Assembly: GCA_051313645.2 (NCBI GenBank)
Contig: JBNRSN020000004.1
Coordinates: 333,684,001 to 333,748,000 of the forward strand
Reading direction: 5' to 3'
DNA length: 64,000 nt
Source: Centroscyllium fabricii
Lineage: Eukaryota
The stretch's first letter is position 1. Every line of letters begins with the position of its first letter. Under the pieces are notes generated by a model. The model was given only the letters and a program-made list of their open reading frames with translations. It ran no database searches and had not been told where the DNA came from. Of the stretch, positions 4,405-60,081 are shown piece by piece. The position numbers were made by a program, and so were the translations under genes.

Positions 4405-4560
4405 AATAAAATGCTGGAAAAACTCAGTCGACTTGACAAAGGGGCCTAACCCGAAATGTCGACTCTATATTTCTCTCCGCGGATGTTGCCTGGCCGCTGA
4501 GTTTTTCCAGCATTTTCTGTTATTTCGGATTTCCAGCATCTGCAGTATTTTGCTATCGTA
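4405..4560 (+). mobile_element. Short Penelope-derived inverted-repeat element with a degenerate hammerhead motif
   Basis: Arms AAAATGCTGGAAAAACTCAG and CTGAGTTTTTCCAGCATTTT flank TTGACAAAGGGG...CCCGAAATGTCGAC. Similar to 47610-47712 and 50448-50605. Confidence 0.6.
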
Positions 4561-11820: not shown

Positions 11821-12119
11821 ACAAAAGGTATGGAGAGCAGGGAGTTCGACTCCAAACTGGCTGAAGAGCATGTGTGAACCCATCTAAAACCCCGCTTACA
11901 GAGTCATCTTCTGGACCAGCTTTGAACGGCAAAAGGGGTCGGAGAGGAATTTCCCAGATATTATTCCTCCAAATTGGCCTGGGTTTTTATCTAATTTTTC
12001 GCCTCTTCCAGGAGATTACATGGTTTTGGATGGGGTGGAGAGTGTGGATACTGTGATGCACAAGGTATCACAAGCTGGAAGGACCAGAGGGTTTTTTCCT
12101 GTCTGCCATTGTTTGTATA

Positions 12120-12320
12120 ATGTGGAGGTGCCGGTGTTGGACTGGGGTGGACAAATGCAAGAAGTCACACAACACCAGATTATAGTCCAACAGTTTTATT
12201 TTAAATCACAAGCTTTCGGAGCTTCTGCCCCTTCATCTGACGACGGGGCAGAAGCTCCGAAAGCTTGTGATTTAAAATAAAACTGTTGGACTATAATCTG
12301 GTGTTGTGTGACTTCTTGCA
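12120..12320. mobile_element. Non-autonomous Penelope-like hairpin element with a hammerhead core
   Basis: ~75-bp perfect inverted arms; CTGACGA-stem-GAAAGCTTGTGA; 12-bp TSD ATTGTTTGTATA (12108-12119 and 12321-12332). Confidence 0.8.
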
Positions 12321-12987
12321 ATTGTTTGTATAGAGTGGCTCTGCGGTATTCCTCAGACTGGTTTGAAGTTGCCCCCGCTGTTTACAATGGAGCCCCCCTT
12401 CTGGGACACAGCCAGTTGGCCACATCATTGGAAAACTAGTGGGGAGAAGACTCTATAATCAAATGGTTAGCAATAAAATGTAATAAATTTTAAAAAATCA
12501 AGACATTTCTGATAAAACTTATTTTCCTCAGCTTGTTCAATGTTGGCAAAACCAAATTCATCCTCTTCAGTTCTGCCAACTGCCTCATTTTGGTTCCAGT
12601 CCCGTTAACCTCACCAACTAACAGTTCGGATTGAATTAGCAGCTGCGCAACCCAAGCACTGTGGATGAATTTTCTACCATGAAGTCTGGGAGCAAATGCC
12701 AATTGTAGTGCCCCTTTTTCCAGGACAGCTGAGGTTAGTTAACGCAGCACAAACAGGGTCCAGCCGAAGACCGACCGATGAGCCTGGGTTTCCTGGTCTG
12801 GACCGCTTAATATTTACACCAGGCTGTATTTTTAACCACTCGCTATCAGGGAAGCTTCTTTCTACTTGCTTTAATGCCCCCAAGTGAAATGAATGTGGGC
12901 ATCACAATCCATCATCAGATTAATGCCAAAGGTGTCACTTTTGCATGGATGCACAGCTTTTTCCAGAAAAGTGGCAGAATAACTTCA

Positions 12988-15020: not shown

Positions 15021-15770
15021 CAGGTTGAACACCGTTAATCCGGCAGAGTCAGGACCAGCACCCTGCCGAATTTTTGAGAACACCGAATGATTGAAGCTTC
15101 GCCGGAGCATGCGCAGAGCATTCAAAATGGCTGCCGCTAAATTTTGAATGCTCTGCGCATGCGCTCGCTGTTCGGTGGAATGGCCGCCGCAAAATTTTGA
15201 GTGCTCTGCGCATACGCTCGCCGTTCGTGGACGCATGCGCAGAGCATTCAAAATGGCCGCCGCAAAATTTTTAATGCTCTGCGCATGTGTCGCTGGTACG
15301 TGGAAGGTGATTTTCGGCCCAAGGGTCGGGTGGAACTCACAAGACGCACTCAATTCTGCTGCCCATGGTGAATCAGGGAGCGGGCTGCACGGCTCCAGCG
15401 GGCCTGAGGCCCAATGCGCGGCTTAAGCCCGGCTCACATGACGCCACCGCACGCCAGCTTCGGAACGCGGTGACGTCAGCACGCAGCAGCCTCTGGCAGC
15501 CATGGCGGAGTCGGGCCGAGCTTTGGCTGTATCGCGTCCTGTGAAAGGCGGCTGGCACAACAGTTCATCTTCTGGGCTTGGGATTCACCTTCGGCATCGG
15601 GGTGGTCACTAAGCCAGGATTCAGTGAGTATCTGTTAGGTGAAAGGGAAGCTCAGCCCCGACGGCAGCCATTTTGAATTTTCTGCGCATGTGCTGGGCAG
15701 TCGGGAAAATCTGTGCCGGACGACTGAAACTGCCGGTTTTTCGGGTAACGAATTAACGGTGCTCAACCTG
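15021..15770. mobile_element. Tc1/mariner (Tigger/pogo-like) MITE with GCGCATGCGC arrays
   Basis: TIR CAGGTTGA(A/G)CACCGTTAAT, TA TSD. Confidence 0.85.
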
Positions 15771-18217: not shown

Positions 18218-18749
18218 CAGGTTATGCACCATTAATCCGCCACGGGCGGGACCAGGCCCGTGCCAGGAAATGGAAAAAACCGGGAGAACGAGGTTGGACA
18301 CTGCGCATGCGCACCATTCAAAATGGCCGCACGCATGCGCGCAACATTGAGATTGGCTGGCGCGCGCATGCGCAGATCGGGCCCGGGTCCGCCGTCCCTC
18401 TCCATCACCTTTCGGGTTGCTGCTGCCGCCGAGCCGGACTCAGGCTGACAGCTGTTGCCTAGTGACTGTCCGCCTCAGTCACGGGGCTCAGCTGTGGAGA
18501 AAATAACCGGCGGCCGTATTGAATTATCTGCGCATGCGCTAACCGTCCGGCGACGCATGCGCAGATCATTCAAAACACCCGGCAGCTATTTTGAATGATC
18601 TGCGCATGCGCTGGGCGCATGCGCAGATCATTCGCTGAAGCCACGATGGCGGCGGCCATCTTGCGCATGCGCAGTGCAGTCGGGGCAATTTGTGCCGGCA
18701 GACTGAAGCTGCCGGCTATTCGGGACATGGATTTTCGGTGCACAACCTG
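18218..18749. mobile_element. Tigger/pogo-like MITE, variant subfamily
   Basis: TIR CAGGTT(A/G)TGCACC, TA TSD, inserted in CR1 at GCGGTA|CGAAGG. Confidence 0.85.
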
Positions 18750-23478: not shown

Positions 23479-23606
23479 CTCTAATGAAATCAAAGAGTTG
23501 CGGGATAGGTCAAGTGATTTAAGACGGGTAAAGTTCTTGAGGGACTTTCCAAGATGTGTGATCTTTTCTTCATAACTTCCTGGCAGAAACAACGATCGTA
23601 CATCCG
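23479..23606 (-). CDS. CEP72: CEP72-like LRR protein, coding exon 2 (ADVRSLFLPGSYEEKITHLGKSLKNFTRLKSLDLSRNSLISLE)
   Basis: Acceptor TTTCAG|CG and donor GAG|GTCAGT. The phase-1 junction with exon 1 gives GCG (Ala). The peptide resembles the CEP72 N-terminal LRR (KITHLG, LKSLDLSRNSL.SLE); the paralog LRRC36 is not fully excluded. Confidence 0.85.
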
Positions 23607-29300: not shown

Positions 29301-30126
29301 ACAGTCCAAAGATGTGCGGGTTAGGTTGATTTCCCAGGATAAATTGACCCTTAGTGTTAGGGTGATTGAATGTGTGGGGTTACGGGGATAGGGTGGGATA
29401 TGTGTCGGTGCAGGCTTGATAGGGATCGAGGGATATGGGGACAAGGCAGGGACAGAGTGCTGGGTTTGGATGATCAGCCATGATCTCACTGAATGGCGGA
29501 GCAGGCTCGAAGGGCCGAATGGCCTACTCCTGCTCCTATCTTCTATGTTTCTTTGTCCTTTCTTAAGTATGGACACCAAAACTGTAGGCAGTATTCCAGG
29601 TGCGGTCTCACCAATACCTTGTACAACTGAAGCAATATCTCCCTGTTTTTATATTCTATCCCCCTAGCAATGAAAGCCAACATTCCATTGGCCTTCTTAA
29701 TTACTTGCTGCACCTGCATACTAACCTTTTGAGTTTCGTGCACCAGGACCCCCAGATCCCTTTGTACTTCAGTACTTTCCAGTTTCTTGCCGTTAAGATA
29801 ATAATCCGCTCTATGATTTTTCCTGCCAAAATGCATAACCTCACACTTTCCCGTATTGTACTCCATCTGCCAAATCTCTGCCCACTGACTTAGCCTGTCT
29901 ATGTCCCCCTGCAGGTTCTTTACGTCCTCCTCATTCACCACTTTCCCTCCCATCTTAGTATCATCTGCAAACTTTGATATGTTACACTCGGTCCCCTCCT
30001 CCAAATCGTTAATATAAATTGTAAAGAGTTGGGGACCCAGCACTGACCCCTGCGGAACACCACTAGTGACCGGTTGCCAGTCTGAGAATGACCCATTTAT
30101 CCCAACTCTCTGCCTTCTGTTAGATA

Positions 30127-30354
30127 AATGCAAGAAGTCACACAACACCAGATTATAGTCCAACGGTTTTATTTTAAATCACAAGCTTTCGGAGCTCAGC
30201 CCCTTCCTCAGGTGAACAGAGGTCTCTCTCTGTTCACCTGAGGAAGGGGCTGAGCTCCGAAAGCTTGTGATTTAAAATAAAACTGTTGACTATAATCTGG
30301 TGTTGTGTGACTTCTTGCATTTGTCCACCCCAGTCCAACACCGGCACCTCCACA
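30127..30354. mobile_element. Penelope-like hairpin element with hammerhead ribozymes on both strands
   Basis: Inverted arms; hammerhead motif at 30234-30270 (+) and 30179-30215 (-); 12-bp TSD TTCTGTTAGATA. Confidence 0.85.
30234..30270 (+). ncRNA. Minimal type I hammerhead ribozyme motif
   Basis: TCAC-CTGAGGA-A-GGGGC TGA GCTCC-GAAA-GCTT^GTGA. Stem I is TCAC/GTGA, the core is conserved, and stem III is the palindrome AGCT. Confidence 0.75.
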
Positions 30355-31920
30355 TTCTGTTAGATAGCCAATCCTCTATCCATGCCAGAATATTACCCCC
30401 AATTCTGTGATTTTTTATTTTTAAGCAGTTGGCTGTAGCCCCATCTACTAATGCCTGCAGGGCCACCTCGTCAAAACGAGGAGCTGATCTGGGTCTCCCG
30501 CTAGTCATCGTTCCTGCAGGTCTCTCGCAATCCACAGGCAAAAAGCTTGACAGTCTGCAGAAGAAGCAAGGCTTGCTGTAGACCTTAAATGCAGCAGCAA
30601 TGATGACATCATCGGAGGCGACTTTCAGTCAGGAAAAGCCCATTTGCCAAGGGTTCCCACGCGTTGGAAATCAATTGGACAATTAAGTTAACATTTCATC
30701 AATCTCCCACATCCATTTAGATTCGGGTGGATAACGAGAAATGTGGATAACATGCCACCATCCCGCACCGAGTTAAAATCCAGCTCAATGCCTCTGCGCT
30801 TTGGAGAAGTAAAAACAAAAATCAGTTAGGGTTGACACTCCCAATTACTACCCAGTGTCTACTGCTGAAAAATGCCTGTGGATGTTGCGCACAAACCGGA
30901 TTTTGGTTGCCTCTAATTTATGTAATGAAGCAGCTTCTACAGCTTTTTGGGGCAGCATGTCCCTCCGTGGTCAAATAGCCTGCTGACACTCACTATCTCG
31001 GTTCATACGGAACGAATGGCCAATTGAGAAAGGTACCCGAAGGCCGTTGATACTCTTGGATCCATACTGAAGGCAAATGATGCGCCTCGGAGGGGAGAGA
31101 AAGGAGAGGGTGAGGGAAAAGGAGGGCACTAGAAAGAGTGAGAAAGAACGAGAGAGAGAAGGAAAAGGGGACGGGGAGGAAAAACGCATGCCTTTTATCT
31201 TGAATACTATGCCAGGATTAGCCTTACAATTCAGATTCTTTATTCTGATTTGTGCAGATAGATTTTCTCCTGTAATGGAAACATGATAAATTGAAGGTGT
31301 CCAAAATACAGCGTACAAGCCCTGGTTAGCCAGCTTGTCAAGTCCGACTTCCCCATTTTCTAATTGTCTTCCAACTTCTGCAGCACTCTGCTCTCCAGTT
31401 GGATTTGCAGGCCTGAGAGCTAGTATGGCCCATTTCCAATGCTGCTTCCTGACTGGTGAATCAATTCGAAATTCCAAATCTCCTGGCCCACAAATTACAA
31501 AAAGAGTGAAACCAGCAGGATTCTAAATGCAATCGGTAACTGTGGTGATATCGAAACTTCCGGCAGAAAGTCTAATGAACTCTGCATATGTATTTCCTGT
31601 GACATCATTTCCTTTTTACATGTCACTTCCTGTATATACGTCACTTCCTGTCTAGTGGTATAAGTTCTGCTGCTATCCAGTCTGGGATGATGCTTCCCCT
31701 GTAAGCATGTGAAACGCTAACTCTGTAAATAGTTGATTAAAGCTTTGCTTAGAGTTATTGATGTGTAGGTCTCTTTTGTCACATCAGTAACTATCAAAGA
31801 AAGAGAAATCAAGATCAAGGGGACAAACAGCAAGACTGATCGCACAGGGCAAGCAAAGGGATAGAGAGAGCAACCGTACAGGAAGTGAGACCAAACATGC
31901 AAAGAGAATTAGGAGACAGT

Positions 31921-36987: not shown

Positions 36988-37468
36988 CAGGTTGAGCACC
37001 ATTAATCCGGCACGGTCGGGACCAGGACCGTGCCGAATTTTTGAAAACTCCGAATCATTGAAGTTCGACGAGCGCATGCGCAGACCATTCAAAATGGCCA
37101 CCGCAAAATTTTGAATGGTTTGCGCATGCGCTCGCCGAAGCATCAACCGTTCGGGGAGAGGCCTGGGCATGCGCAGCCAAGCACGGCAGCCATATTGCGC
37201 ATGCGCAGACCAGTCGGGGAGGCCCGGGCATGCGCAGCCACGCGTGGTGGCCATTTTGCGCATGCGCAGGGCAGTCGGGCAGAGGCCTGGGCATGCGCAG
37301 CCAAGTGCGGCGGCCATATTGCGCATGCGCAGACCAATCGGGGAGGCCCGGGCATGCGCAGCCACGCGCGGCAGCCATTTTGCGCATGCGTGCACCAGTC
37401 GGCCAGATTCGTGCCGGACGTTTGAAGTTGCCGGACACACGGTGTCCGGATTAACGGTGCTCAACCTG
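36988..37468. mobile_element. Tigger/pogo-like MITE with ~60-bp internal tandem repeats
   Basis: TIR CAGGTTGAGCACC, TA TSD, about four GGGCATGCGCAGCC...GCCAT.TTGCGCATGCG units. Confidence 0.88.
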
Positions 37469-44782: not shown

Positions 44783-44916
44783 CAGTCTCTCTTTCACCTG
44801 AGGAAGGAGCAGACGCTCCGAAAGCTTGTGATTTAAAATAAAACCATTGGACTATAATCTGGTGTTGTGTGACTTCTTGCATTTGTCCACCCCAGTCCAA
44901 CACCGGCACCTCCACA
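44783..44916 (+). mobile_element. Single-arm Penelope-like element with a hammerhead motif
   Basis: TTCACCTGAGGAAGGAGCAGACGCTCCGAAAGCTTGTGA followed by the same arm as 30127-30354. Confidence 0.75.
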
Positions 44917-45287
44917 TTATTTGAAGTGTGGTCACTGTAGTAATGTCGAGAAATGCAGCAACTAAATTTGCACACAGCAAGGTCCCACAAACAGCAATAT
45001 GATAATGACCAGAAATCTGATTTTAATGATGTTGGTTGAGGGATAAATATTGACCAGGACCAGAAAAACTCGCCTACTCTTTTTCCAACAGTGCCTTGGG
45101 ATCCTTCACGTCCACCGCAAAGGGCAGATGGGGCCTCGGCTTAAGGTCTCACCTGACAATCCAGCACTCCCTCAGCACAGCATTGAAGTGCCAGCCTAGA
45201 TTATGTGCTCAAGCCTGTGGTGTGGGACTTTATCCCACAAACTTCTGACTCAGAGACAAGAGTGCCAGCACTAAGCCAAGACTGGCA
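44917..45287 (-). mobile_element. Deu-domain SINE
   Basis: Reverse complement of the 6745-7155 core. Confidence 0.65.
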
Positions 45288-46901: not shown

Positions 46902-47370
46902 CAGAGGTCTCCAACCGCCGGTCCGCGGACCGGCACCGGCCCGCGGGACAGTTTTACCGGTCCGTGGACGATTATGAGAATCCGCGCATGCGCAGATACA
47001 TCGCCCTTGCCGCGGACATTTGGCTAATGTTCGGCGCATGCGCCGAATCACAGACCCTGCCGCAGCCCGTTGTTAAATTGATCGACTGGCCGTGGCGGGG
47101 TCCTGGAATCGGCGCATGCGCTGATTCTCCGAACCTTCAGCCGACGGAACGTAGAGGCACAGACGGAAGGCAGCAAACCCGCGGGTAACCCTTGAAATCT
47201 CCTTCAGCACCCCCCGCCCCCCCCCCCCGCTGAGCATTAAAATCTCCGTCAGCACCCCCCCCCCCCGCCCCGCTGAGCATGATAATCTCCGCCAGGACCC
47301 CCCCACCGGTCCGCGAAGAAATTGACAAGCCCAAAACGGGCCGCGAACGCACAAAGGTTGGGGACCCCTG
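46902..47370. mobile_element. hAT (Charlie-like) MITE
   Basis: TIR CAG(A/G)GGTC(T/C)CCAACC; 8-bp TSD TGTTAATC/TGTTAAGC. Confidence 0.82.
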
Positions 47371-47609
47371 TGTTAAGCTGTAAGAATCCTGCAGGTCATA
47401 TGAAAATGCTTCCATTTCCAGCCTCATTTTGCTTTTAAAATTACTTGGATTTGTCGAGAGGTATCATCTTACACGATGCAAACAGGCCCTGCGCCTGTTT
47501 GCACCAGCCTTAAAATTTTCTTATGTAATTGCTGGGCAGTTGGTGGGCAATTAACCCAACTCTGTGCTAGAAATTAGGATTTCTGTCGGTGCAGATCATC
47601 TATTCAGCA

Positions 47610-48640
47610 TGAAACAACAACAGAAAATGCTGGAGAAACTTAGCAGGCCAGGCAGCATCGGGGGAGAGAGAAACAGGGTTATCGTTTCAGGTCGAAGACC
47701 TTTCTTCAGAACTGGAGAAGCCAGGAGGGGGGATAGATTTTAAAGCTAGTAGGGGCTGGGGAAAGAACAAAGGAAATATCAGCAACAGGTTAGAAGGCAG
47801 GGAAGGTAAGAGATATTCGGAGAAATTGAAGGGACACAGGATGGCTCTGAATAGGTGTGAACAGCTTAGTAAAGAAAAAAGAAAAAAAAAGGAAAAAAGC
47901 CCAGACGAAAGTGTCGATTGAAAAAAGAGAAAATATATATACAGCGTATGTAAAAAAGTGTGGCAGGGGCCGAGATTATGATCTAAAATTGTTGAACTCT
48001 ACGTTTAGACCAGAGGGCTGCAGAGTGCCTAAGCAAAAGATGAGGTGCTGTTCCTCAAGTTTACGCCGGGCTTCCGTGGAACAATGCAACGGGCCACAGA
48101 CAGTGAGGTCTGAATGGGAGTGGAGTGGAGAATTAAAGCGACAGGCCACCAGGAGCTCAGGGTCCCCCTTACGGACTGAACGGAGGTGTTCCGCAAAGCG
48201 GTCACCCAATCTGCGTTTGGTGTCCCCGATGTAAAGGAGACCACATCGTAAGCAGCGAATACAGTATACTAAATTATAGGAAGTACACGTAAATCGCTGT
48301 TTCACCTGGAAGGGGTGTTTGGGGCCCTGGACAGTGGGAAGGGAGGAGGTATAAGGGCATGTGTTGCATCTCCTGCGCTTGCACGGGAAGGTGCCGGGCG
48401 AAGCATAAGGGGTGCTGGGTAGAGGAGTGGACTAGGGTGTCGCGGAGAGAGTGGTCCCTACGAAATGCAGAAAGGGGAGGTGATGGGAAGATGCATTTGG
48501 TGGTGGGATCACGCTGGAGGTGGCGGAAATGGCGGAGGATGATCCGTTGAATGTGGAGGCTGGTGGGGTGAAAGGGGAGGACAAGGGGAACTCTCTCGTG
48601 GTTCCGGGAGGGAGGGACAGGGGTGAGGGCAGAAGTTCAG
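47610..48640 (-). mobile_element. Penelope-like retroelement 3' part: GIY-YIG endonuclease and pseudo-LTR
   Basis: FTCTSYNLVYCIRCLRCGLLYIGDTKRRLGDRFAEH...EEQHLIFCLGTLQPSGLN; hammerhead-like CTGAAGA-AGGTC/GACCT-GAAA at about 47678-47712. Confidence 0.88.
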
Positions 48641-49354: not shown

Positions 49355-50830
49355 AAGACTTGCATTTATATAGCACCTTTCACGACCACCGGTTGTCCCA
49401 ATGAAGTACTTTTTTTTTTATGTAGTCACTGTTGTAATGCAGGAAGCGCAGCAGCCAATTCGCACACAGCAAGCTCCCACAAACAGCAGTGTGATAATGA
49501 CCAAATAATCTGTTTTAGTGATGCTATGATGTGGAGATGTGGACTAGGGTGGACAAATGTAAGAACTCACACACCAGGTTATAGTCCAACAGTTTTATTT
49601 GAAAGCACAAGCTTTCGGAGCGCTGCTCATTCCTCAGGTGAAGAAGGATGCATAAAGAAACATAGAAGATAGGAGCAGGAGTAGGCCACTCGGCCCTTCG
49701 AGCCTGCTCCGCCATTCAATGAGATCATGGCTGATCATCCAAACTCAGTACCCAGTCCCTGCCTCGTCCCCATATCCCTCGATCCCTATCGAACCTGCAC
49801 TGACACATATCCCACCCTATCCCTGTAACCCCACATATTCAATTGCCCTAACACTAAGGGTTAATTTATCCTGGCCAATCAACCTAACCCGCACATTTTT
49901 GGACTGTGGGAGGAAACCGGAGCACCCGAAGGAAACCCACGCAGACACGGGGAGTATGTGCAAACTCCACACAGATAGTACCCGAGGCTGGATTTGAACC
50001 CGGGTCTCCAGTGCTGTGAGGCAACAGTGCTAACCACTATGCCACCATGCCACCTATATGCATCTCTTCACTTCACCTGAGGAAGGAGCAGCGCTCCGAA
50101 AGCTTGTGGGCTTCCTCCAGGTGCTCCGGTTTCCTCCCACAGTCAAAAGATGTGCGGGTTAGGTTGATTGGCCATGATAAACTGACCCTTAGTGTTAGGG
50201 GGATTGAATATGTGGGGTTACGGGGATAGGGTGGGATATGTGTCGGTGCAGACTCGATAGGGATCAAGGGATACGGGGACAAGGCAGTGATGGGGTGCTG
50301 AGTTTGGATGATCAGCCATGATCTCATTGAATGGCGGAGCAGGCTCGAAGGGTCGAATGGCCTACTCATGCTCCTATCTTCTATGTTTCTATGATTTCAA
50401 ATAAAACTGTTGGACTATAACCTGGTGTTGTGTGAGTTCTTACATTAATGAAATAACAACAGAAAATGCTGGAAACTACCCGGGAACTACCCGAAACGTT
50501 GACTCCTATTGCTCTCCTATGGATGTTGCCTGAACTGCTGAGTTTTTCCAGCATTTTCTGTTGTTATTTCAGATGTCCAGCATCTGCAGTATTTTGTTAT
50601 CGTCTTACATTAGTGATGTTGGTTGAGGGATAAATATTGGCCAGGAGGCTGGGGAGAACTCCCCTGCTCCTCTTCGAAATAGGGCCACAGAATATCAACT
50701 GAGAGAGCAGAGAGGGCCTTGGTTTAATGTCTCATCCAAAAAGCGGCACCTCTGACAGTGCAGCATTCCCTCAGCACTGCATTGAGCCTATCAGCTCAGA
50801 ATTTTGTGCTCATGTCTCTGGAGTGGGACA
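49355..50830. mobile_element. Nested stack: Deu-SINE containing a Penelope hairpin element (itself holding two V-SINEs) and a second Penelope-type repeat
   Basis: Deu-SINE halves at 49355-49525 and 50610-50830; hairpin arms at 49528-49643 and 50072-50445; V-SINEs at 49655-50053 (-) and 50110-50393 (+). Confidence 0.7.
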
Positions 50831-51250
50831 ATCGGGTTCCAACACCAAACCCTAGCCTCAAACCCTGAGCCTAAGCAAACCTGATGAACAGGGGGTAATT
50901 ATTAATTTCTTGTAATTATTAATTATTGTTTATATTTATTGTAATCCGGAAAGCACAGACATGGAGCTTGCGATTAAGCATTTCACTACACTTTGTACAT
51001 GTACAATGATGTATGTGACAAATAAAGTGAACTTGAACAGGGGGGTGAAGGGTCTGCAAGTGGGTGCCCATGAACACACAGGGGTTGGCAGAGACAGACC
51101 AGGCCAGTTGGGGAGAGGCCTGGCAGCAACAGCTCGACCCCCGTCCCTGGCGCTGGAGCTTCCCCAGGGACCGCACTCGGTCTGATGTCCCTGCAGCAAG
51201 CTGCAATCCGCCCCCTTTGCAAGCCGGGCTGCGGCCCCCGGCACCCTTAC

Positions 51251-51314
51251 CCAGCTGCTCCTGCTCCAGAGCCACTCTCCGCCGGACCCACTCTTCGGTC
51301 GCTCTCAGCGCCAT
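51251..51314 (-). CDS. CEP72: CEP72-like coding exon 1 (MALRATEEWVRRRVALEQEQL)
   Basis: ATG in AGGATGG context within a CpG island; donor G|GTAAGG; 64 nt (phase 1) splices in frame to exon 2. Confidence 0.78.
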
Positions 51315-51415
51315 CCTTTCAAACCGGCCGTCACTGCGCAGGCGCGCCGCAGCACTGCCACTCACAGCTCGGGGGCGGGGCCCGGTGGGTTAAACTCCGC
51401 CCACTCGCTCTTGAC
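51315..51415 (-). promoter_or_regulatory. CpG-island promoter / 5' UTR of the CEP72-like gene
   Basis: NRF1-like TGCGCAGGCGCG at about 51335; GC boxes GGGGCGGGG at about 51372 and CTCCGCCC at about 51394. Confidence 0.6.
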
Positions 51416-51417
51416 CA

Positions 51418-54400
51418 CTGCTGGAGAGAGAACACAGAGAGAGTATTAGTGCAACTAGAGAGAGAGAACACAGAGAGAGTATTAGTGCAACTAGAGAGAG
51501 AGAACACAGAGTGAGTATTAGTGCAACTAGAGAGAGAGAACACAGAGAGAGTATTAGTGCAACTAGAGAGAGAGAACACAGAGAGAGTATTAGTGCAACT
51601 AGAGAGAGAGAACACAGAGAGAGTATTAGTGCAACTAGAGAGAGAGAACACAGAGAGAGTATTAGTGCAACTAGAGAGAGAGAACACAGAGAGAGTATTA
51701 GTGCAACTAGAGAGAGAGAACACAGAGAGAGTATTAGTGCAACTAGAGAGAGAACACAGAGAGTATTAGTGCAACTAGAGAGAGAGAGAACACAGAGAGA
51801 GTATTAGTGCAACTGGAGAGAGAGAGAACACAGAGAGTATTAGTGCAACTGGAGAGAGAGAACACAGAGAGAGTATTAGTGCAACTAGAGAGAGAACACA
51901 GAGAGTATTAGTGCAACTGGAGAGAGAGAGAGAGAGAACACAGAGTATTAGTGCAACTGGAGAGAGTGAGAGTGAACACAGACAGTATTAGTGCAACTGG
52001 AGAGAGAGAGAGTGAACACAGAGAGTATAAGTGCAACTAGAGAGAGTGAACACAGAGAGTATTAGTGCAACTGGAGAGAGTGAACACAGAGAGTATTAGT
52101 GCAACTGGAGAGAGTGAGAGTGAACACAGACCGTATTAGTGCAACTAGAGAGAGTGAACACAGAGAGTATTAGTGCAACTGGAGAGAGAGAGAACACAGA
52201 GAGTATTAGTGCAACTAGAGAGAGTGAACACAGACAGTATTAGTGCAACTAGAGAGAGTGAACACAGACAGTATTAGTGCAACTGGAGAGAGAGAGAACA
52301 CAGAGAGTATTAGTGCAACTGGAGAGAGTGAGAGTGAACACAGACAGTATTAGTGCAACTGGAGAGAGAGAGAGAACACAGAGAGAGTATTAGTGCAACT
52401 GGAGAGAGAGAACACAGACATTATTAGTGCAACTAGAGAGAGTGAACACAGACAGTATTAGTGCAACTGGAGAGAGAGAGAACACAGAGAGTATTAGTGC
52501 AACTGGAGAGAGTGAGAGTGAACACAGACAGTATTAGTGCAACTGGAGAGAGAGAGAACACAGAGAGAGTATTAGTGCAACTGGAGAGAGAGAGAACACA
52601 GAGTATTAGTGCAACTGGAGAGAGAGAACACAGAGAGAGTATTAGTGCAACTAGAGAGAGAACACAGAGAGTATTAGTGCAACTGGAGAGAGAGAGAGAG
52701 AGAACACAGAGTATTAGTGCAACTGGAGAGAGAGAGAACACAGAGAGAGTATTAGTGCAACTGGAGAGAGAGAGAACACAGAGAGTATTAGTGCAACTGG
52801 AGAGAGAGAACACAGAGAGAGTATTAGTGCAACTAGAGAGAGAACACAGAGAGTATTAGTGCAACTGGAGAGAGAGAGAGAGAGAACACAGAGTATTAGT
52901 GCAACTGGAGAGAGTGAGAGTGAACACAGACAGTATTAGTGCAACTGGAGAGAGAGAGAGTGAACACAGAGAGTATTAGTGCAACTGGAGAGAGTGAACA
53001 CAGAGAGTATTAGTGCAACTGGAGAGAGTGAGAGTGAACACAGACCGTATTAGTGCAACTAGAGAGAGTGAACACAGAGAGTATTAGTGCAACTGGAGAG
53101 AGAGAGAACACAGAGAGTATTAGTGCAACTAGAGAGAGTGAACACAGACAGTATTAGTGCAACTGGAGAGAGAGAGAACACAGAGAGTATTAGTGCAACT
53201 GGAGAGAGTGAGAGTGAACACAGACCGTATTAGTGCAACTAGAGAGAGTGAACACAGAGAGTATTAGTGCAACTGGAGAGAGAGAGAACACAGAGAGTAT
53301 TAGTGCAACTAGAGAGAGTGAACACAGACAGTATTAGTGCAACTAGAGAGAGTGAACACAGACAGTATTAGTGCAACTGGAGAGAGAGAGAACACAGAGA
53401 GTATTAGTGCAACTGGAGAGAGTGAGAGTGAACACAGACAGTATTAGTGCAACTGGAGAGAGAGAGAACACAGAGAGAGTATTAGTGCAACTGGAGAGAG
53501 AGAGAACACAGAGTATTAGTGCAACTGGAGAGAGAGAACACAGAGAGAGTATTAGTGCAACTAGAGAGAGAACACAGAGAGTATTAGTGCAACTGGAGAG
53601 AGAGAGAGAGAGAACACAGAGTATTAGTGCAACTGGAGAGAGAGAGAACACAGAGAGAGTATTAGTGCAACTGGAGAGAGAGAGAACACAGAGAGTATTA
53701 GTGCAACTGGAGAGAGAGAACACAGAGAGAGTATTAGTGCAACTAGAGAGAGAACACAGAGAGTATTAGTGCAACTGGAGAGAGAGAGAGAGAGAACACA
53801 GAGTATTAGTGCAACTGGAGAGAGTGAGAGTGAACACAGACAGTATTAGTGCAACTGGAGAGAGAGAGAGTGAACACAGAGAGTATTAGTGCAACTGGAG
53901 AGAGTGAACACAGAGAGTATTAGTGCAACTGGAGAGAGTGAGAGTGAACACAGACCGTATTAGTGCAACTAGAGAGAGTGAACACAGAGAGTATTAGTGC
54001 AACTGGAGAGAGAGAGAACACAGAGAGTATTAGTGCAACTGGAGAGAGTGAGAGTGAACACAGACCGTATTAGTGCAACTAGAGAGAGTGAACACAGAGA
54101 GTATTAGTGCAACTGGAGAGAGAGAGAACACAGAGAGTATTAGTGCAACTAGAGAGAGTGAACACAGACAGTATTAGTGCAACTAGAGAGAGTGAACACA
54201 GACAGTATTAGTGCAACTGGAGAGAGAGAGAACACAGAGAGTATTAGTGCAACTGGAGAGAGTGAGAGTGAACACAGACAGTATTAGTGCAACTGGAGAG
54301 AGAGAGAACACAGAGAGAGTATTAGTGCAACTGGAGAGAGAGAGAACACAGAGTATTAGTGCAACTGGAGAGAGAGAACACAGAGAGAGTATTAGTGCAA

Positions 54401-57400
54401 CTAGAGAGAGAACACAGAGAGTATTAGTGCAACTGGAGAGAGAGAGAGAGAACACAGAGTATTAGTGCAACTGGAGAGAGTGAGAGTGAACACAGACAGT
54501 ATTAGTGCAACTGGAGAGAGTGAACACAGAGAGTATTAGTGCAACTGGAGAGAGTGAACACAGAGAGTATTAGTGCAACTAGAGAGAGTGAGAGTGAACA
54601 CAGACAGTATTAGTGCAACTAGAGAGAGTGAACACAGAGAGTATTAGTGCAACTGGAGAGAGTGAGAGTGAACACAGACAGTATTAGTGCAACTAGAGAG
54701 AGTGAACACAGAGAGTATTAGTGCAACTGGAGAGAGTGAGAGTGAACACAGAGAGTATTAGTGCAACTAGAGAGAGTGAGAGTGAACACAGACAGTATTA
54801 GTGCAACTAGAGAGAGTGAACAGAGAGTATTAGTGCAACTGGAGAGAGTGAGAGTGAACACAGACAGTATTAGTGCAACTAGAGAGAGTGAACACAGAGA
54901 GTATTAGTGCAACTGGAGAGAGTGAGAGTGAACACAGACAGTATTAGTGCAACTAGAGAGAGTGAACACAGACAGTATTAGTGCAACTGGAGAGAGAGAG
55001 AGAACACAGAGAGTATTAGTGCAACTGGAGAGAGTGAACACAGAGAGTATTAGTGCAACTGGAGAGAGTGAGAGTGAACACAGACCGTATTAGTGCAACT
55101 AGAGAGAGTGAACACAGACAGTATTAGTGCAACTGGAGAGAGAGAGAACACAGAGAGTATTAGTGCAACTAGAGAGAGTGAACACAGACAGTATTAGTGC
55201 AACTGGAGAGAGAGAGAGAACACAGAGAGTATTAGTGCAACTGGAGAGTGAGAGAGAACACAGAGAGTATTAGTGCAACTGGAGAGAGAGAGAGAACACA
55301 GACATTATTAGTGCAACTAGAGAGAGTGAACACAGACAGTATTAGTGCAACTGGAGAGAGAGAGAACACAGAGAGTATTAGTGCAACTGGAGAGAGAGAG
55401 AGAGAACACAGAGTATTAGTGCAACTGGAGAGAGTGAGAGTGAACACAGACAGTATTAGTGCAACTGGAGAGAGTGAACACAGAGAGTATTAGTGCAACT
55501 GGAGAGAGTGAACACAGAGAGTATTAGTGCAACTAGAGAGAGTGAGAGTGAACACAGACAGTATTAGTGCAACTAGAGAGAGTGAACACAGAGAGTATTA
55601 GTGCAACTGGAGAGAGTGAGAGTGAACACAGACAGTATTAGTGCAACTAGAGAGAGTGAACACAGAGAGTATTAGTGCAACTGGAGAGAGTGAGAGTGAA
55701 CACAGAGAGTATTAGTGCAACTAGAGAGAGTGAGAGTGAACACAGACAGTATTAGTGCAACTAGAGAGAGTGAACAGAGAGTATTAGTGCAACTGGAGAG
55801 AGTGAGAGTGAACACAGACAGTATTAGTGCAACTAGAGAGAGTGAACACAGAGAGTATTAGTGCAACTGGAGAGAGTGAGAGTGAACACAGACAGTATTA
55901 GTGCAACTAGAGAGAGTGAACACAGACAGTATTAGTGCAACTGGAGAGAGAGAGAGAACACAGAGAGTATTAGTGCAACTGGAGAGAGTGAACACAGAGA
56001 GTATTAGTGCAACTGGAGAGAGTGAGAGTGAACACAGACCGTATTAGTGCAACTAGAGAGAGTGAACACAGACAGTATTAGTGCAACTGGAGAGAGAGAG
56101 AACACAGAGAGTATTAGTGCAACTAGAGAGAGTGAACACAGACAGTATTAGTGCAACTGGAGAGAGAGAGAGAACACAGAGAGTATTAGTGCAACTGGAG
56201 AGTGAGAGAGAACACAGAGAGTATTAGTGCAACTGGAGAGAGAGAGAGAACACAGACATTATTAGTGCAACTAGAGAGAGTGAACACAGACAGTATTAGT
56301 GCAACTGGAGAGAGAGAGAACACAGAGAGTATTAGTGCAACTGGAGAGAGTGAGAGTGAACACAGACAGTATTAGTGCAACTGGAGAGAGAGAGAACACA
56401 GAGAGAGTATTAGTGCAACTGGAGAGAGAGAGAACACAGAGTATTAGTGCAACTGGAGAGAGAGAACACAGAGAGAGTATTAGTGCAACTAGAGAGAGAA
56501 CACAGAGAGTATTAGTGCAACTGGAGAGAGAGAGAGAGAACACAGAGTATTAGTGCAACTGGAGAGAGTGAGAGTGAACACAGACAGTATTAGTGCAACT
56601 GGAGAGAGAGAGAGTGAACACAGAGAGTATAAGTGCAACTAGAGAGAGTGAACCCAGAGAGTATTAGTGCAACTGGAGAGAGTGAGAGTGAACACAGACA
56701 GTATTAGTGCAACTAGAGAGAGTGAACACAGAGAGTATTAGTGCAACTAGAGAGAGTGAGAGTGAACACAGACAGTATTAGTGCAACTAGAGAGAGTGAA
56801 CACAGAGAGTATTAGTGCAACTAGAGAGAGTGAACACAGACAGTATTAGTGCAACTAGAGAGAGTGAACACAGAGAGTATTAGTGCAACTAGAGAGAGTG
56901 AACACAGAGAGTATTAGTGCAACTGGAGAGAGTGAGAGTGAACACAGACAGTATTAGTGCAACTAGAGAGAGTGAACACAGACAGTATTTGTGCAACTAG
57001 AGAGAGTGAACACAGAGAGTATTAGTGCAACTGGAGAGAGTGAGAGTGAACACAGACAGTATTAGTGCAACTAGAGAGAGTGAACACAGACAGTATTAGT
57101 GCAACTAGAGAGAGTGAACACAGAGAGTATTAGTGCAACTGGAGAGAGTGAGAGTGAACACAGACAGTATTAGTGCAACTAGAGAGAGTGAACACAGAGA
57201 GTATTAGTGCAACTGGAGAGAGAGAGAACACAGAGAGTATTAGTGCAACTAGAGAGAGTGAACACAGACAGTATTAGTGCAACTAGAGAGAGTGAACACA
57301 GACAGTATTAGTGCAACTGGAGAGAGAGAGAGAACACAGAGAGTATTAGTGCAACTGGAGAGAGAGAGAACACAGAGAGTATTAGTGCAACTGGAGAGAG

Positions 57401-57757
57401 AGAGAGAACACAGACATTATTGCTGCAACTAGAGAGAGTGAACACAGACAGTATTAGTGCAACTGGAGAGAGAGAGAACACAGAGAGTATTAGTGCAACT
57501 GGAGAGTGAGAGAGAACACAGACATTATTGCTGCAACTAGAGAGAGAGAGAGAACACAGACAGTATTACTGCCGCTGGAGACAAAACACAGACAGCATTA
57601 CTGCAACTAGAGAGAGAGAGAGAACAGAGAGTATTAGTGCCACTGGAGAGAGAACACAAGAGAGTATTACTGGAACTGGAGAGAGTGAGAGAACACAGAC
57701 AGTATTACTGCCACTGGACAGAGAACACAGCCAGTATTACTGCAACTGGAGAGAGAG
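51418..57757. repeat. ~6.3 kb satellite/VNTR, unit about 32-42 bp GTATTAGTGCAACT(A/G)G(AG)n(TG)AACACAGA(G/C)A, with higher-order blocks
   Basis: Read directly from the sequence; identical ORF translations recur 910 and 2088 bp apart. Confidence 0.97.
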
Positions 57758-59497
57758 TGACGTATCGTCAATTAAGACAAAAGACGAGTAGTTACCTTAA
57801 CTATAGGCTTTTATTAAATTTATAATGGAGCTAGTCTCCAGTCGAGTTCAAGGCGCGAATGAACGGGGGCAGGGCGGCCCTTACCTATAAGCTCCCACCT
57901 GAGGGGAGGAGTTAGAGGTGTGGCTGACCTGGCCTTACACACAGTATACAGGTATATGTGACCCCACAGTGTACAAGTCCCGCCAATGCACTCGCAACTA
58001 CATACAGATGGTAATAACGGTTACCAAATTCACCCCTTCTTTGAAAATAAGTCCAGCGGGGTGAACGAGAGACAAAACAGTAACCAGAGAAGAAAAAGAA
58101 AAATTTTAGTGTCCGTTAGCACTGCGCTATCAGTCTGTCTGGCGGTCGTGTCTGCCTCGAGGACCGCCGGGGTTCCGGTAACGGTGCTGGTGCCGGTTGC
58201 GGTGCCGGGATCGGTGCTGGTGCCGGTGGCGGTGCCGGGGTCGGGCTCTCCGGCAATGGTGCCGGTGGCGCTGTGTTCGATCCTAGGTCAGCAGTTGGTG
58301 TTGTCAAGGGCCCCGGTGTGTGTGTGTATGAGGGCCAGTAGTCGGTGGGTGGTGGCTGGTCGGGCTGAGGCTCGACCGGGGGTTCTGCCCTAGTGCTCCC
58401 GGCGGGCGCCAGGTCCCTGATCGATACCGTGTCCTCGCGCCCGTCCGGGAATGTTACGTAGGCATACTGCGGGTTGGCATGTAGCAGATGCACCCGTTCC
58501 ATCAGGGGGTCGGTCTTGTGGCCGCGGACATGCTTTCTAAGCAAGACCGGCCCTGGCGTCGTGAGCCATGGTGGGAGTGCTGTCCCCAAAGTCGACTTCC
58601 TGGGGAAGGAAAATAACAGGTCGTGAGGTGTTGAATTGGTAGCGGTACACAACAGAGAGCGAATGGAATGGAACGCGTCTGGGAGGACCTCCTGCCAACG
58701 GGAAACTGGAAGGCCTCTGGACTTCAGGCCCAGGTTGACCACCTTCCAGATAGTCCCATTCTCCCTTTCTACCTGGCCGTTCCCTCGGGGGTTGTAACTG
58801 GTCATTCTGCTTGAGGCAACCCCTTTCTGAAGCAGAAACTGGCGCAGTTCGTCGCTCATGAACAACGACCCCCAGTCGCTAAGGATGTAGCTGGGGAGAC
58901 CGAAAATGGCGAACAGCGTGGTGAAGTGCCTTATTACCGTTGCGCTCATCATGTCTGGGCAGGGGAAGGCGAAGGGGAAGCGTGAGAACTCGTCTATGAC
59001 CGTGAGAAAGTACGAGTTGCGGTCAGTGGAGGGGAGGGGGCCTTTGAAGTCCACGCTCAGACGTTCAAAGGGGCGGGTGGCCTTGATGACGTGCGCCGTG
59101 TCTGGCCTGTAAAATTGGGGTTTGCACTCGGCACAGACAGGGCACTCTTTGGTCATAGCCTTTATCTCCGTGATGGAGTAGGGGAGGCTACGGGATTTGA
59201 TGAAGTGGGTGAGTCTGGTGACACCCGGGTGGCAGAGACGATCGTGGAGGGCCTTCAGCCGGTCCAGCTGGGCGCTGGCGCACGTTCCCCTGGACAGTGC
59301 ATCCGGGGGTTCGCTGAGTTTGCCTGGACAGTAAAGAATGTCATACTCGTAAGTCGAGAGTTCGATCCGCCACCGCAGGATCTTATCATTCTTGATTTTA
59401 CCCCGTTGTTTAGTATTAAACATAAACGCTACCAACCGTTGGTCGGTGAGCAGGGTAAAACGCTTACCGGCCAGGTAATGACGCCAGTAGCGCACTG
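57758..59497 (-). mobile_element. Gypsy family A, copy 2: end of RNase H, integrase, PPT and 3' LTR (57758-58028)
   Basis: ORF 58116..59528 has the HHCC motif (H...HPG...CPVC) and an integrase core with catalytic D and E positions; PPT AAAGAAGGGGTGAA abuts the LTR. Confidence 0.92.
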
Positions 59498-60081
59498 TGT
59501 CATAGGTTGGTTCTTCTCCTTTTGTCATAGGTTGGATTCCCCTTTAAATTCTAGGTGGCCTCTTCTCCCTTAAATTGGCCAGTACCTCGTTTACTACTGC
59601 ATACACCAGATTGGACAGCCCTAATCAACCAATATATCTTGAGCTGTTTATAAGCTTCCACTTTGCACCAGGAGCTTGCCAGATCATTAATTCTGTTACT
59701 GTGATACATGTGTTCTGTTCCTAGCTCTCTGATTCAGTCGAATTGTGTTACTGACCTGCTTACAGAAGAATTGGATTCTACTCTGCTGGAACTCGGTGTT
59801 GGAGTTTGTCCCTTCGGTGAAGCGGACTACCTGGAGAATTACTGTTTCTGTATTTGGACTTATTGCTCTCTATTACCTGAACTCTGGTTTGGACTTGTTA
59901 TCCTCTATTACCTGAACTCTGGTTTGGACTTGTTTGTCTCCGTGAACTTACTGCAGTTATTGACTTTATGTTTCTATATCTTCTGACGACTTGGAAATAA
60001 AGGAATTTTATTTCTACGCTGGTTTCCTGTGTTTTGCATTTGGGCCCTACCATCAACCATTACAGAACGATCTGGCCAAGA

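Follow-up and report, generated by a model that had tools for sequence, protein, structure and literature searches.

Genomic context of the insertion

The window, that is the whole 64-kb stretch of DNA that was analysed, carries a 228-bp insertion at 30127-30354, here called insertion B. It interrupts an older LINE, which we take to be of the CR1 type, and is situated between two segments assigned to CEP72.

23479-23606, minus strand: CEP72 exon 2, downstream of insertion B
51250-51314, minus strand: CEP72 exon-1-like segment with an ATG and a GT donor, upstream of insertion B
29546-30126, resuming at 30367 and running to about 30420, minus strand: reverse transcriptase (RT) coding part of the LINE that hosts insertion B (RVT_1, PF00078, E 6e-12)

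The top named matches of the exon at 23606-23479, among 70, are CEP72 of sharks and rays; agreement with a Pristiophorus japonicus CEP72 record is 100% for exon 2 and 14 of 21 residues for exon 1. From these two minus-strand segments we infer that insertion B lies in intron 1 of CEP72, which would be transcribed from the minus strand, and they bear out the intron location given in an earlier note on this DNA. A CpG-poor minisatellite of about 6 kb (51400-57700) is found directly upstream of the exon-1-like segment. Near the two ends of the window, a near-identical pair of integrase-like stretches (about 400-800 and 58700-59550, minus strand), with more on either side, apparently represents LTR-retrotransposon copies. 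A separate short inverted-repeat family with a common GC-rich motif (15108-15690, 18500-18592, 37064-37139 and 47031-47124) has the look of a MITE-type DNA element.

Anatomy of insertion B

Insertion B and its borders consist of the following parts.

30115-30126: left target-site duplication (TSD), 12 bp
30127-30221, minus strand: inverted arm, a 5'-truncated pseudo-LTR copy without tail, sense in the CEP72 pre-mRNA
30222-30227: head-to-head junction or hairpin loop (6-nt spacer), private to insertion B among the three hairpins of the window
30228-30321, plus strand: direct arm, a 5'-truncated pseudo-LTR copy
30322-30354, plus strand: one-sided tail, 33 nt, A/C-rich, the ends of which are putative reverse-transcription start sites; contig ends pile up at 30355
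30355-30366: right TSD, 12 bp

The 12-mer that bounds the insertion on both sides has no further occurrence on either strand of the window. In an alignment with a paralogous LINE copy (17877-17629), both flanks of insertion B match at a spacing of exactly one 12-mer, and since this copy has room for a single 12-mer only, the duplication is a true TSD. The TSD is the only terminal redundancy of the insertion. The arms of about 95 bp are 97% alike, with one mismatch and one 1-nt gap overall and a perfect innermost stretch of 56 bp, and the tail has no pairing partner on the left side. The earlier note had described a hairpin of about 230 bp centred near 30225 with long perfect inverted arms and a 12-bp TSD. 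The hairpin, its centre and the TSD were confirmed, as were the long inverted arms, but the word perfect was a slight overstatement. That description was correct as far as it went and omitted the one-sided tail and three sister insertions.

The inverted arm fuses in frame with the RT frame of the LINE, producing a stop-free stretch of 211 codons on the CEP72 strand (29543-30178, minus strand), which is probably due to chance.

An inverted repeat of this kind could also be an artefact of assembly, or could have arisen when an older solo copy was duplicated in inverted form at the DNA level. Short-read assemblies are reported to struggle with inverted repeats (PMC8557442; the papers cited here are used as far as their accessible text goes), and no public contig from four sequencing runs spans the whole stretch 30222-30460. 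However, the arms differ from each other by a substitution and a gap, a clean 12-bp TSD surrounds the whole unit, the flanks are not duplicated, and two other insertions show the same tail offset. We regard an artefact or DNA-level duplication as highly improbable.

Hammerhead motifs

A purpose-built minimal type I hammerhead descriptor, run over the 64-kb window with 100 shuffles as control, found five sites (C3 positions 12237+, 30238+, 30211-, 44798+ and 50077+), all of them within the repeat family of insertion B; the shuffles gave a mean of 0.01 and a maximum of 1. The motifs of insertion B are placed as follows.

30234-30270, plus strand: minimal type I hammerhead motif with C3 at 30238 and a cut predicted after 30266
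30179-30215, minus strand: minimal type I hammerhead motif with C3 at 30211 and a cut predicted after 30183

The descriptor thus confirms, at the level of the motif, the hammerhead that the earlier note had read on each strand with a predicted cut after CUU. Rfam models, which that note had proposed as a check, detected no hammerhead: there were no matches at gathering score in the whole 64-kb window, and no hammerhead family was present among 20 weak matches over 29900-30600. These weak matches comprise 17 miRNA-precursor rows, two SscA rows and one lncRNA row, and a miRNA identity of insertion B was rejected as all of them fall below the gathering score.

Besides the CUU triplet, the motifs of insertion B have a 4-bp stem I, a 5-bp stem II, one extra A and a zero-loop palindromic stem III. 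Metazoan PLE (Penelope-like element) minimal hammerheads are described as having a helix I of 4-5 bp, a nucleotide between 9 and 10.1, G10.1-C11.1 and palindromic 15.2-16.2 (PMC4209133). The conserved core, the 4-bp helix I, the nucleotide between 9 and 10.1, G10.1-C11.1 and the palindromic 15.2-16.2 are all present in insertion B. The 5-bp helix II, compared with 7-8 bp in Schistosoma minimal hammerheads, counts against a PLE reading. In the same source a single minimal motif is reported to show no cleavage and dimers to cleave weakly, and opposite-strand pairs of minimal hammerheads, 100-700 bp apart, are already described (PMC4209133). The ribozyme of an Anolis PLE is reported to need protein for activity and to be dispensable for insertion (PMC11167929).

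Differences between the hammerheads of the copies are located in the stem-II loop or preserve pairing (G-U versus A-U). Because variation is distributed in this way, the comparison of copies suggests that the hammerhead fold is under selection in the source elements. In insertion B the hammerhead is likely a passenger brought along from its source pseudo-LTR.

Sister insertions in the window

A BLAST search of the window with the right arm revealed three further insertions, giving four family members, of which three are hairpins.

12108-12332, minus strand: sister A, hairpin with tail on the left and a 12-bp TSD (12108-12119, 12321-12332); its centre falls within the hammerhead core, which leaves one core intact
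44786-44917, plus strand: sister C, lone arm plus tail without inverted arm, no TSD seen
49515-50618, minus strand: sister D, a left-tailed hairpin from a subfamily that has diverged further, with a 9-bp TSD (49515-49523, 50610-50618) and split by three later insertions

The hairpin of A is oriented opposite to that of B. The TSDs of the hairpins measure 12, 12 and 9 bp, and the one-sided tails 33 nt in B, about 34-35 nt in A and about 30 nt in D, where a 7-nt deletion and a longer end are found. In all three the inverted arm ends at the same point, about 33-37 nt before the end of the tail. The centres differ in every case: the centre is inside the core in A, 10-15 nt before C3 in B, and about 20 nt or more before C3 in D, a comparison of three hairpins in 64 kb in which the centre of D is obscured by a later insertion. 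Two intact hammerhead cores are present in B only. Within a hairpin the two arms have the same stem-II loop, and this loop differs from those of the other two hairpins, which indicates that each hairpin came from its own source sequence.

A self-propagating fold-back unit of the MITE-like kind is expected to have its two ends and its centre in common between copies, and in the window the three centres are all different. The earlier note had itself named breakpoints unique to each copy as the observation that would speak against a propagating family, and that is the pattern of the three hairpins. Its recurring non-autonomous unit survives in part, since the arm sequence does recur (four insertions in the window) but the hairpin does not recur as a unit. 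Judged from these copies, the recurrent part is the pseudo-LTR and its mode of insertion, not a fixed hairpin unit.

All seven arms (in 12120-12320, 30127-30354, 44786-44917 and 49524-50445) start within about 21 nt of the hammerhead C3. This clustering hints that an RNA has its 5' end, or that the RT stops, a short way upstream of the ribozyme.

Remnants of a second PLE-like family are found at 47606-48500 on the minus strand, with a GIY-YIG-like frame (47982-48332; PF01541 at E 5e-4, which misses the curated cut-off), followed by a repeat end of its own (47760-47606) with a hammerhead-like core read by eye. A short relative of this family at 50446-50609, nested in the end of D, has 27-bp inverted arms, a one-sided tail and a TSD of about 10 bp, and another relative is present at 4449-4524. 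Because the element at 50446-50609 repeats the pattern of insertion B, fold-back products would be made by two unrelated families.

The family in public sequencing contigs

The right arm and flank of insertion B (30222-30460) were compared with four of 20 listed sequencing runs, in which depth is not a copy number; the runs share just 0.29-0.54 of the words and may come from related species. The numbers of contigs matched per run were 32,361, 28,763, 3,615 and 3,879, matches to the LINE flank included. Loose ends starting right behind the tail at 30355 numbered 577 in run X1 and 565 in X2, with an agreement of 0.39. This low agreement implies many unrelated flanks at one fixed 3' end, as expected for independent insertions. 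The consensus of these loose ends opens with CATG, again at low agreement. Upstream, loose ends at 30233 were found in 156, 136, 31 and 48 contigs (agreement 0.41-0.71), and their consensus resembles the sequence upstream in D, not the hairpin centre of B. Contigs of X10 and X11 carry mostly D-type substitutions, which suggests that other species share the D subfamily.

Six X2 contigs with a loose end at 30252 look folded back at the stem-II palindrome, a fourth kind of centre, though weakly at an agreement of 0.73. In several X1 and X2 contigs the tail end is joined back to 30325 with about nine letters between (30325-30355); these joints may reflect tails in tandem, or copies joined tail to tail, at other places in the genome.

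The source RNA could be a short ORF-less pseudo-LTR master, a SINE-like derivative of a PLE that is not autonomous, instead of a full-length PLE mRNA, with the hairpin made anew at each insertion. Such a master would account for the start of all seven window arms close to C3, and two protein searches with short queries found no ORF link. Chlamydomonas is reported to have non-autonomous PLEs and very short PLE insertions with a median of 128 bp (PMC9977147). The same clustering would, however, result if a normal mRNA began in the pseudo-LTR, where an internal promoter has been described (PMC2377424), and was primed close to its 5' end, and ordinary truncation would cluster arm starts too. The CATG behind the tail, for all its low agreement, is what an ORF start might give. 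A short master is in our opinion rather unlikely, and it alters the source of the RNA, not the verdict on the hairpin.

Folding and predicted sequestration of the ribozymes

Each strand of insertion B is predicted to fold as a single long hairpin, at -185.1 and -186.9 kcal/mol (z = -25 and -24), and none of 200 shuffles was as stable. The second ribozyme is an inverted copy of the first, and each strand carries the antisense arm ahead of the sense hammerhead. Since the complement of the hammerhead is transcribed first on either strand, the hammerhead would be sequestered. In equilibrium predictions, forcing the hammerhead fold inside the hairpin costs 76.2 kcal/mol in both polarities, and the probabilities of stem I and stem II are 0 at all six nascent lengths per strand; for an isolated arm the probability of stem II is 0.56-0.98. 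Two isolated hammerheads co-fold at -33.0 kcal/mol via stem II and not as the active stem-III dimer, in a calculation that has the pseudoknotted active dimer outside its scope. An isolated hammerhead is no more stable than its shuffles, nor is a stem-loop over the tail (z -0.7 to -0.9).

The hammerhead of insertion B is thus predicted to be locked shut by the hairpin in either transcript, and in the CEP72 pre-mRNA the insertion would be an inert double-stranded stem of about 95 bp. The two motifs are never on one RNA, and therefore no cis dimer can form. With one hammerhead per strand there would be at most one cut, and therefore no unit-length monomer to circularise. The 'ambisense' look of insertion B is a consequence of its palindrome.

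These predictions bear directly on the proposal of the earlier note that the hairpin propagates itself as a rod-like RNA, similar to retrozymes or viroids and mobilised by a PLE, whose ribozymes work in both polarities. In its favour, both cores of insertion B are intact, the nearly identical arms give a rod-like fold, the family is abundant, and rotifer pseudo-LTR sequences can reportedly act in trans (PMC3846280). Yet the paired ribozymes are one sequence and its inverted copy, one per strand and with a predicted fold probability of about 0, so that no unit-length RNA would be released, while retrozymes need tandem ribozymes on the same strand. Moreover, the centres of the window hairpins all differ, only one of the three has two intact cores, and the centre of B is not the consensus of the upstream loose ends. 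A copy that ends at the tail would also lack the downstream RNA that the Anolis protein is reported to need (PMC11167929). The claim of ribozymes working in both polarities is accordingly not upheld, and self-propagation of the hairpin appears very improbable.

A variant would be that the exact centre of B recurs elsewhere as a subfamily. The fold-back product would then have become an ORF-less parasite of PLEs that is mobilised again and travels in host or read-through transcripts, and the hammerheads on its two strands would be off in the hairpin and on only after separation of the arms, for instance through PLE protein or antisense transcription. We consider this just as improbable as self-propagation.

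Origin and possible mechanism of insertion

The assignment to PLEs rests on architecture and hammerhead type, and that the element works like a PLE insertion is better supported than membership of any clade. The anatomy of PLE insertions has been published (PMC8557442, PMC3846280, PMC4209133, PMC8969392): a 5'-truncated copy in inverted orientation beside a tail of 30-40 bp at one end (PMC8557442), and in rotifers head-to-head copies with TSDs of 8-10 bp and a 31-bp tail (PMC3846280). Of the features of EN+ PLE insertions, head-to-head truncated copies (in three of the four insertions), a one-sided tail, a TSD of about 8-12 bp and a pseudo-LTR hammerhead are found here. Together with the hammerhead type, the published anatomy supports the view of the earlier note that this insertion lacks an ORF and derives from a PLE, with a PLE RT/GIY-YIG protein as its probable maker.

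The longest open frame of the repeat end, a short query, gave no link to an RT/GIY-YIG ORF in a word-seeded search of longer proteins, nor any match in a profile search of 1.84 billion representative proteins. At the DNA level, an exact-pattern scan of viral contigs gave no matches, and 37 pattern matches in metagenome contigs were dismissed as chance, each aligning over at most 24 nt; viral and metagenome contigs thus held no true relatives of the repeat end.

A possible mechanism follows from work on the purified protein of an Anolis PLE (Poseidon). It is reported to cut and extend both target strands, favouring DNA that is AT-rich, to start reverse transcription at two internal sites bounding the tail without a need for hammerhead cleavage, and to require RNA extending downstream of the start sites (PMC11167929). 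In insertion B the 3' ends of both TSDs run straight into antisense element, as expected of cDNA, the top strand from the proximal site and the bottom strand from the distal site, and at the inverted-arm junction three of four bases match the template. Such TSD-to-antisense junctions are expected if a cut with a 12-nt stagger is primed at both of its ends. In this scheme, a PLE GIY-YIG endonuclease would cut both strands of an AT-rich target 12 nt apart, after which each 3' end would prime reverse transcription on pseudo-LTR RNA. One start would be at the distal site, the end of the tail, and the other at the proximal site about 33 nt inside. Both cDNAs would halt some 100-130 nt further on, close to the hammerhead's 5' side, before being joined head to head by these ends.

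Within the PLE model it is also conceivable that one strand folds back and self-primes at a local palindrome, and that endonuclease resolution leaves the tail. The private variants common to both arms of a hairpin are better explained by fold-back, the centres of A and B are at quasi-palindromes, and the weakly supported X2 contigs apparently folded back at the stem-II palindrome would fit as well. Self-priming has been proposed for head-to-head PLE structures (PMC3846280), and the tail has been ascribed to endonuclease resolution (PMC8557442). Alone, however, fold-back leaves unexplained why the inverted arm has a common internal end in all three hairpins, an end that matches the second start site of RT in vitro (PMC11167929), and it does not explain the junction microhomology with the target. 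Self-priming is a serious possibility to which we would give somewhat less than even credence. For the arrangement of junctions we lean slightly towards two-strand priming from a staggered cut over fold-back of a single cDNA; the product would be identical.

In view of the above, insertion B is likely a one-off, dead-on-arrival truncated fold-back product of a high-copy shark PLE and not a self-propagating unit.

As such it is a routine retroelement remnant, and it teaches caution, as any ribozyme-bearing inverted repeat looks 'ambisense'. It is also a clean example of a PLE insertion product. A survey of young shark copies could tell two-strand priming and fold-back self-priming apart, a step left open in vitro. 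Many shark hairpins may, tentatively, record two-strand priming together with an RNA 5' end just upstream of the hammerhead, though we think this less probable than not by a clear measure; if true, they would form a natural data set on the unsolved late steps of PLE integration. Intronic stems of about 95 bp might feed RNA editing or small RNAs.

Comparison with known systems

In viroid-like ambisense RNAs the ribozyme of each polarity folds and cuts multimers to unit length, and the circular replicon carries two ribozymes of different sequence, each able to fold during synthesis. Insertion B shares with them a rod-like predicted fold and a hammerhead motif that can be read on both strands. 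Its motifs, by contrast, are one sequence and its mirror in genomic DNA, and the penalty and the near-zero probabilities given above, predicted for both polarities, set it apart from RNAs with ribozymes that fold in each polarity.

Non-LTR retrozymes (PMC7229834; 10.64898/2026.07.22.740005) resemble insertion B in being ORF-less and PLE-related, with a type I hammerhead, a size of 150-450 bp and a TSD of more than 4 bp. As described in the accessible parts of these sources, what defines them is a tandem of units in which one strand carries two or more hammerheads. The units are arranged head to tail and release circular monomers, whereas insertion B is head to head with one ribozyme per strand, and there is no tandem among the five hammerhead sites of the window. 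A chondrichthyan retrozyme set is listed in the supplements of 10.64898/2026.07.22.740005 and could include the family of insertion B. We found no paper on this shark family; subscription journals, Repbase and Dfam were outside the search and may well have it.

The minimal PLE hammerheads (PMC4209133) are close to those of insertion B, which shares the intact core, the 4-bp helix I, the extra nucleotide 9/10.1, G10.1-C11.1, the palindromic 15.2-16.2 and the absence of loop 3. Insertion B differs in its helix II of 5 bp, and the searchable text and supplements of that paper, one file excepted, contain no shark example. Poseidon of Anolis carolinensis, PAc (PMC11167929), likened to insertion B by description, has a hammerhead shortly upstream of an A/C-rich tail with two fixed ends and an AT-rich target. 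PAc was studied as a full-length element in vitro, and hairpin products are not described in the main text.

The closest correspondence is with the complex EN+ PLE insertions (PMC3846280, PMC8557442), which are reported to have the same head-to-head inverted truncated copy, a 30-40-nt tail at one end, a TSD of about 10 bp and a palindromic junction. Insertion B differs from them in having no ORF between the repeats, both copies being cut to about 100 nt, and in its shark host.
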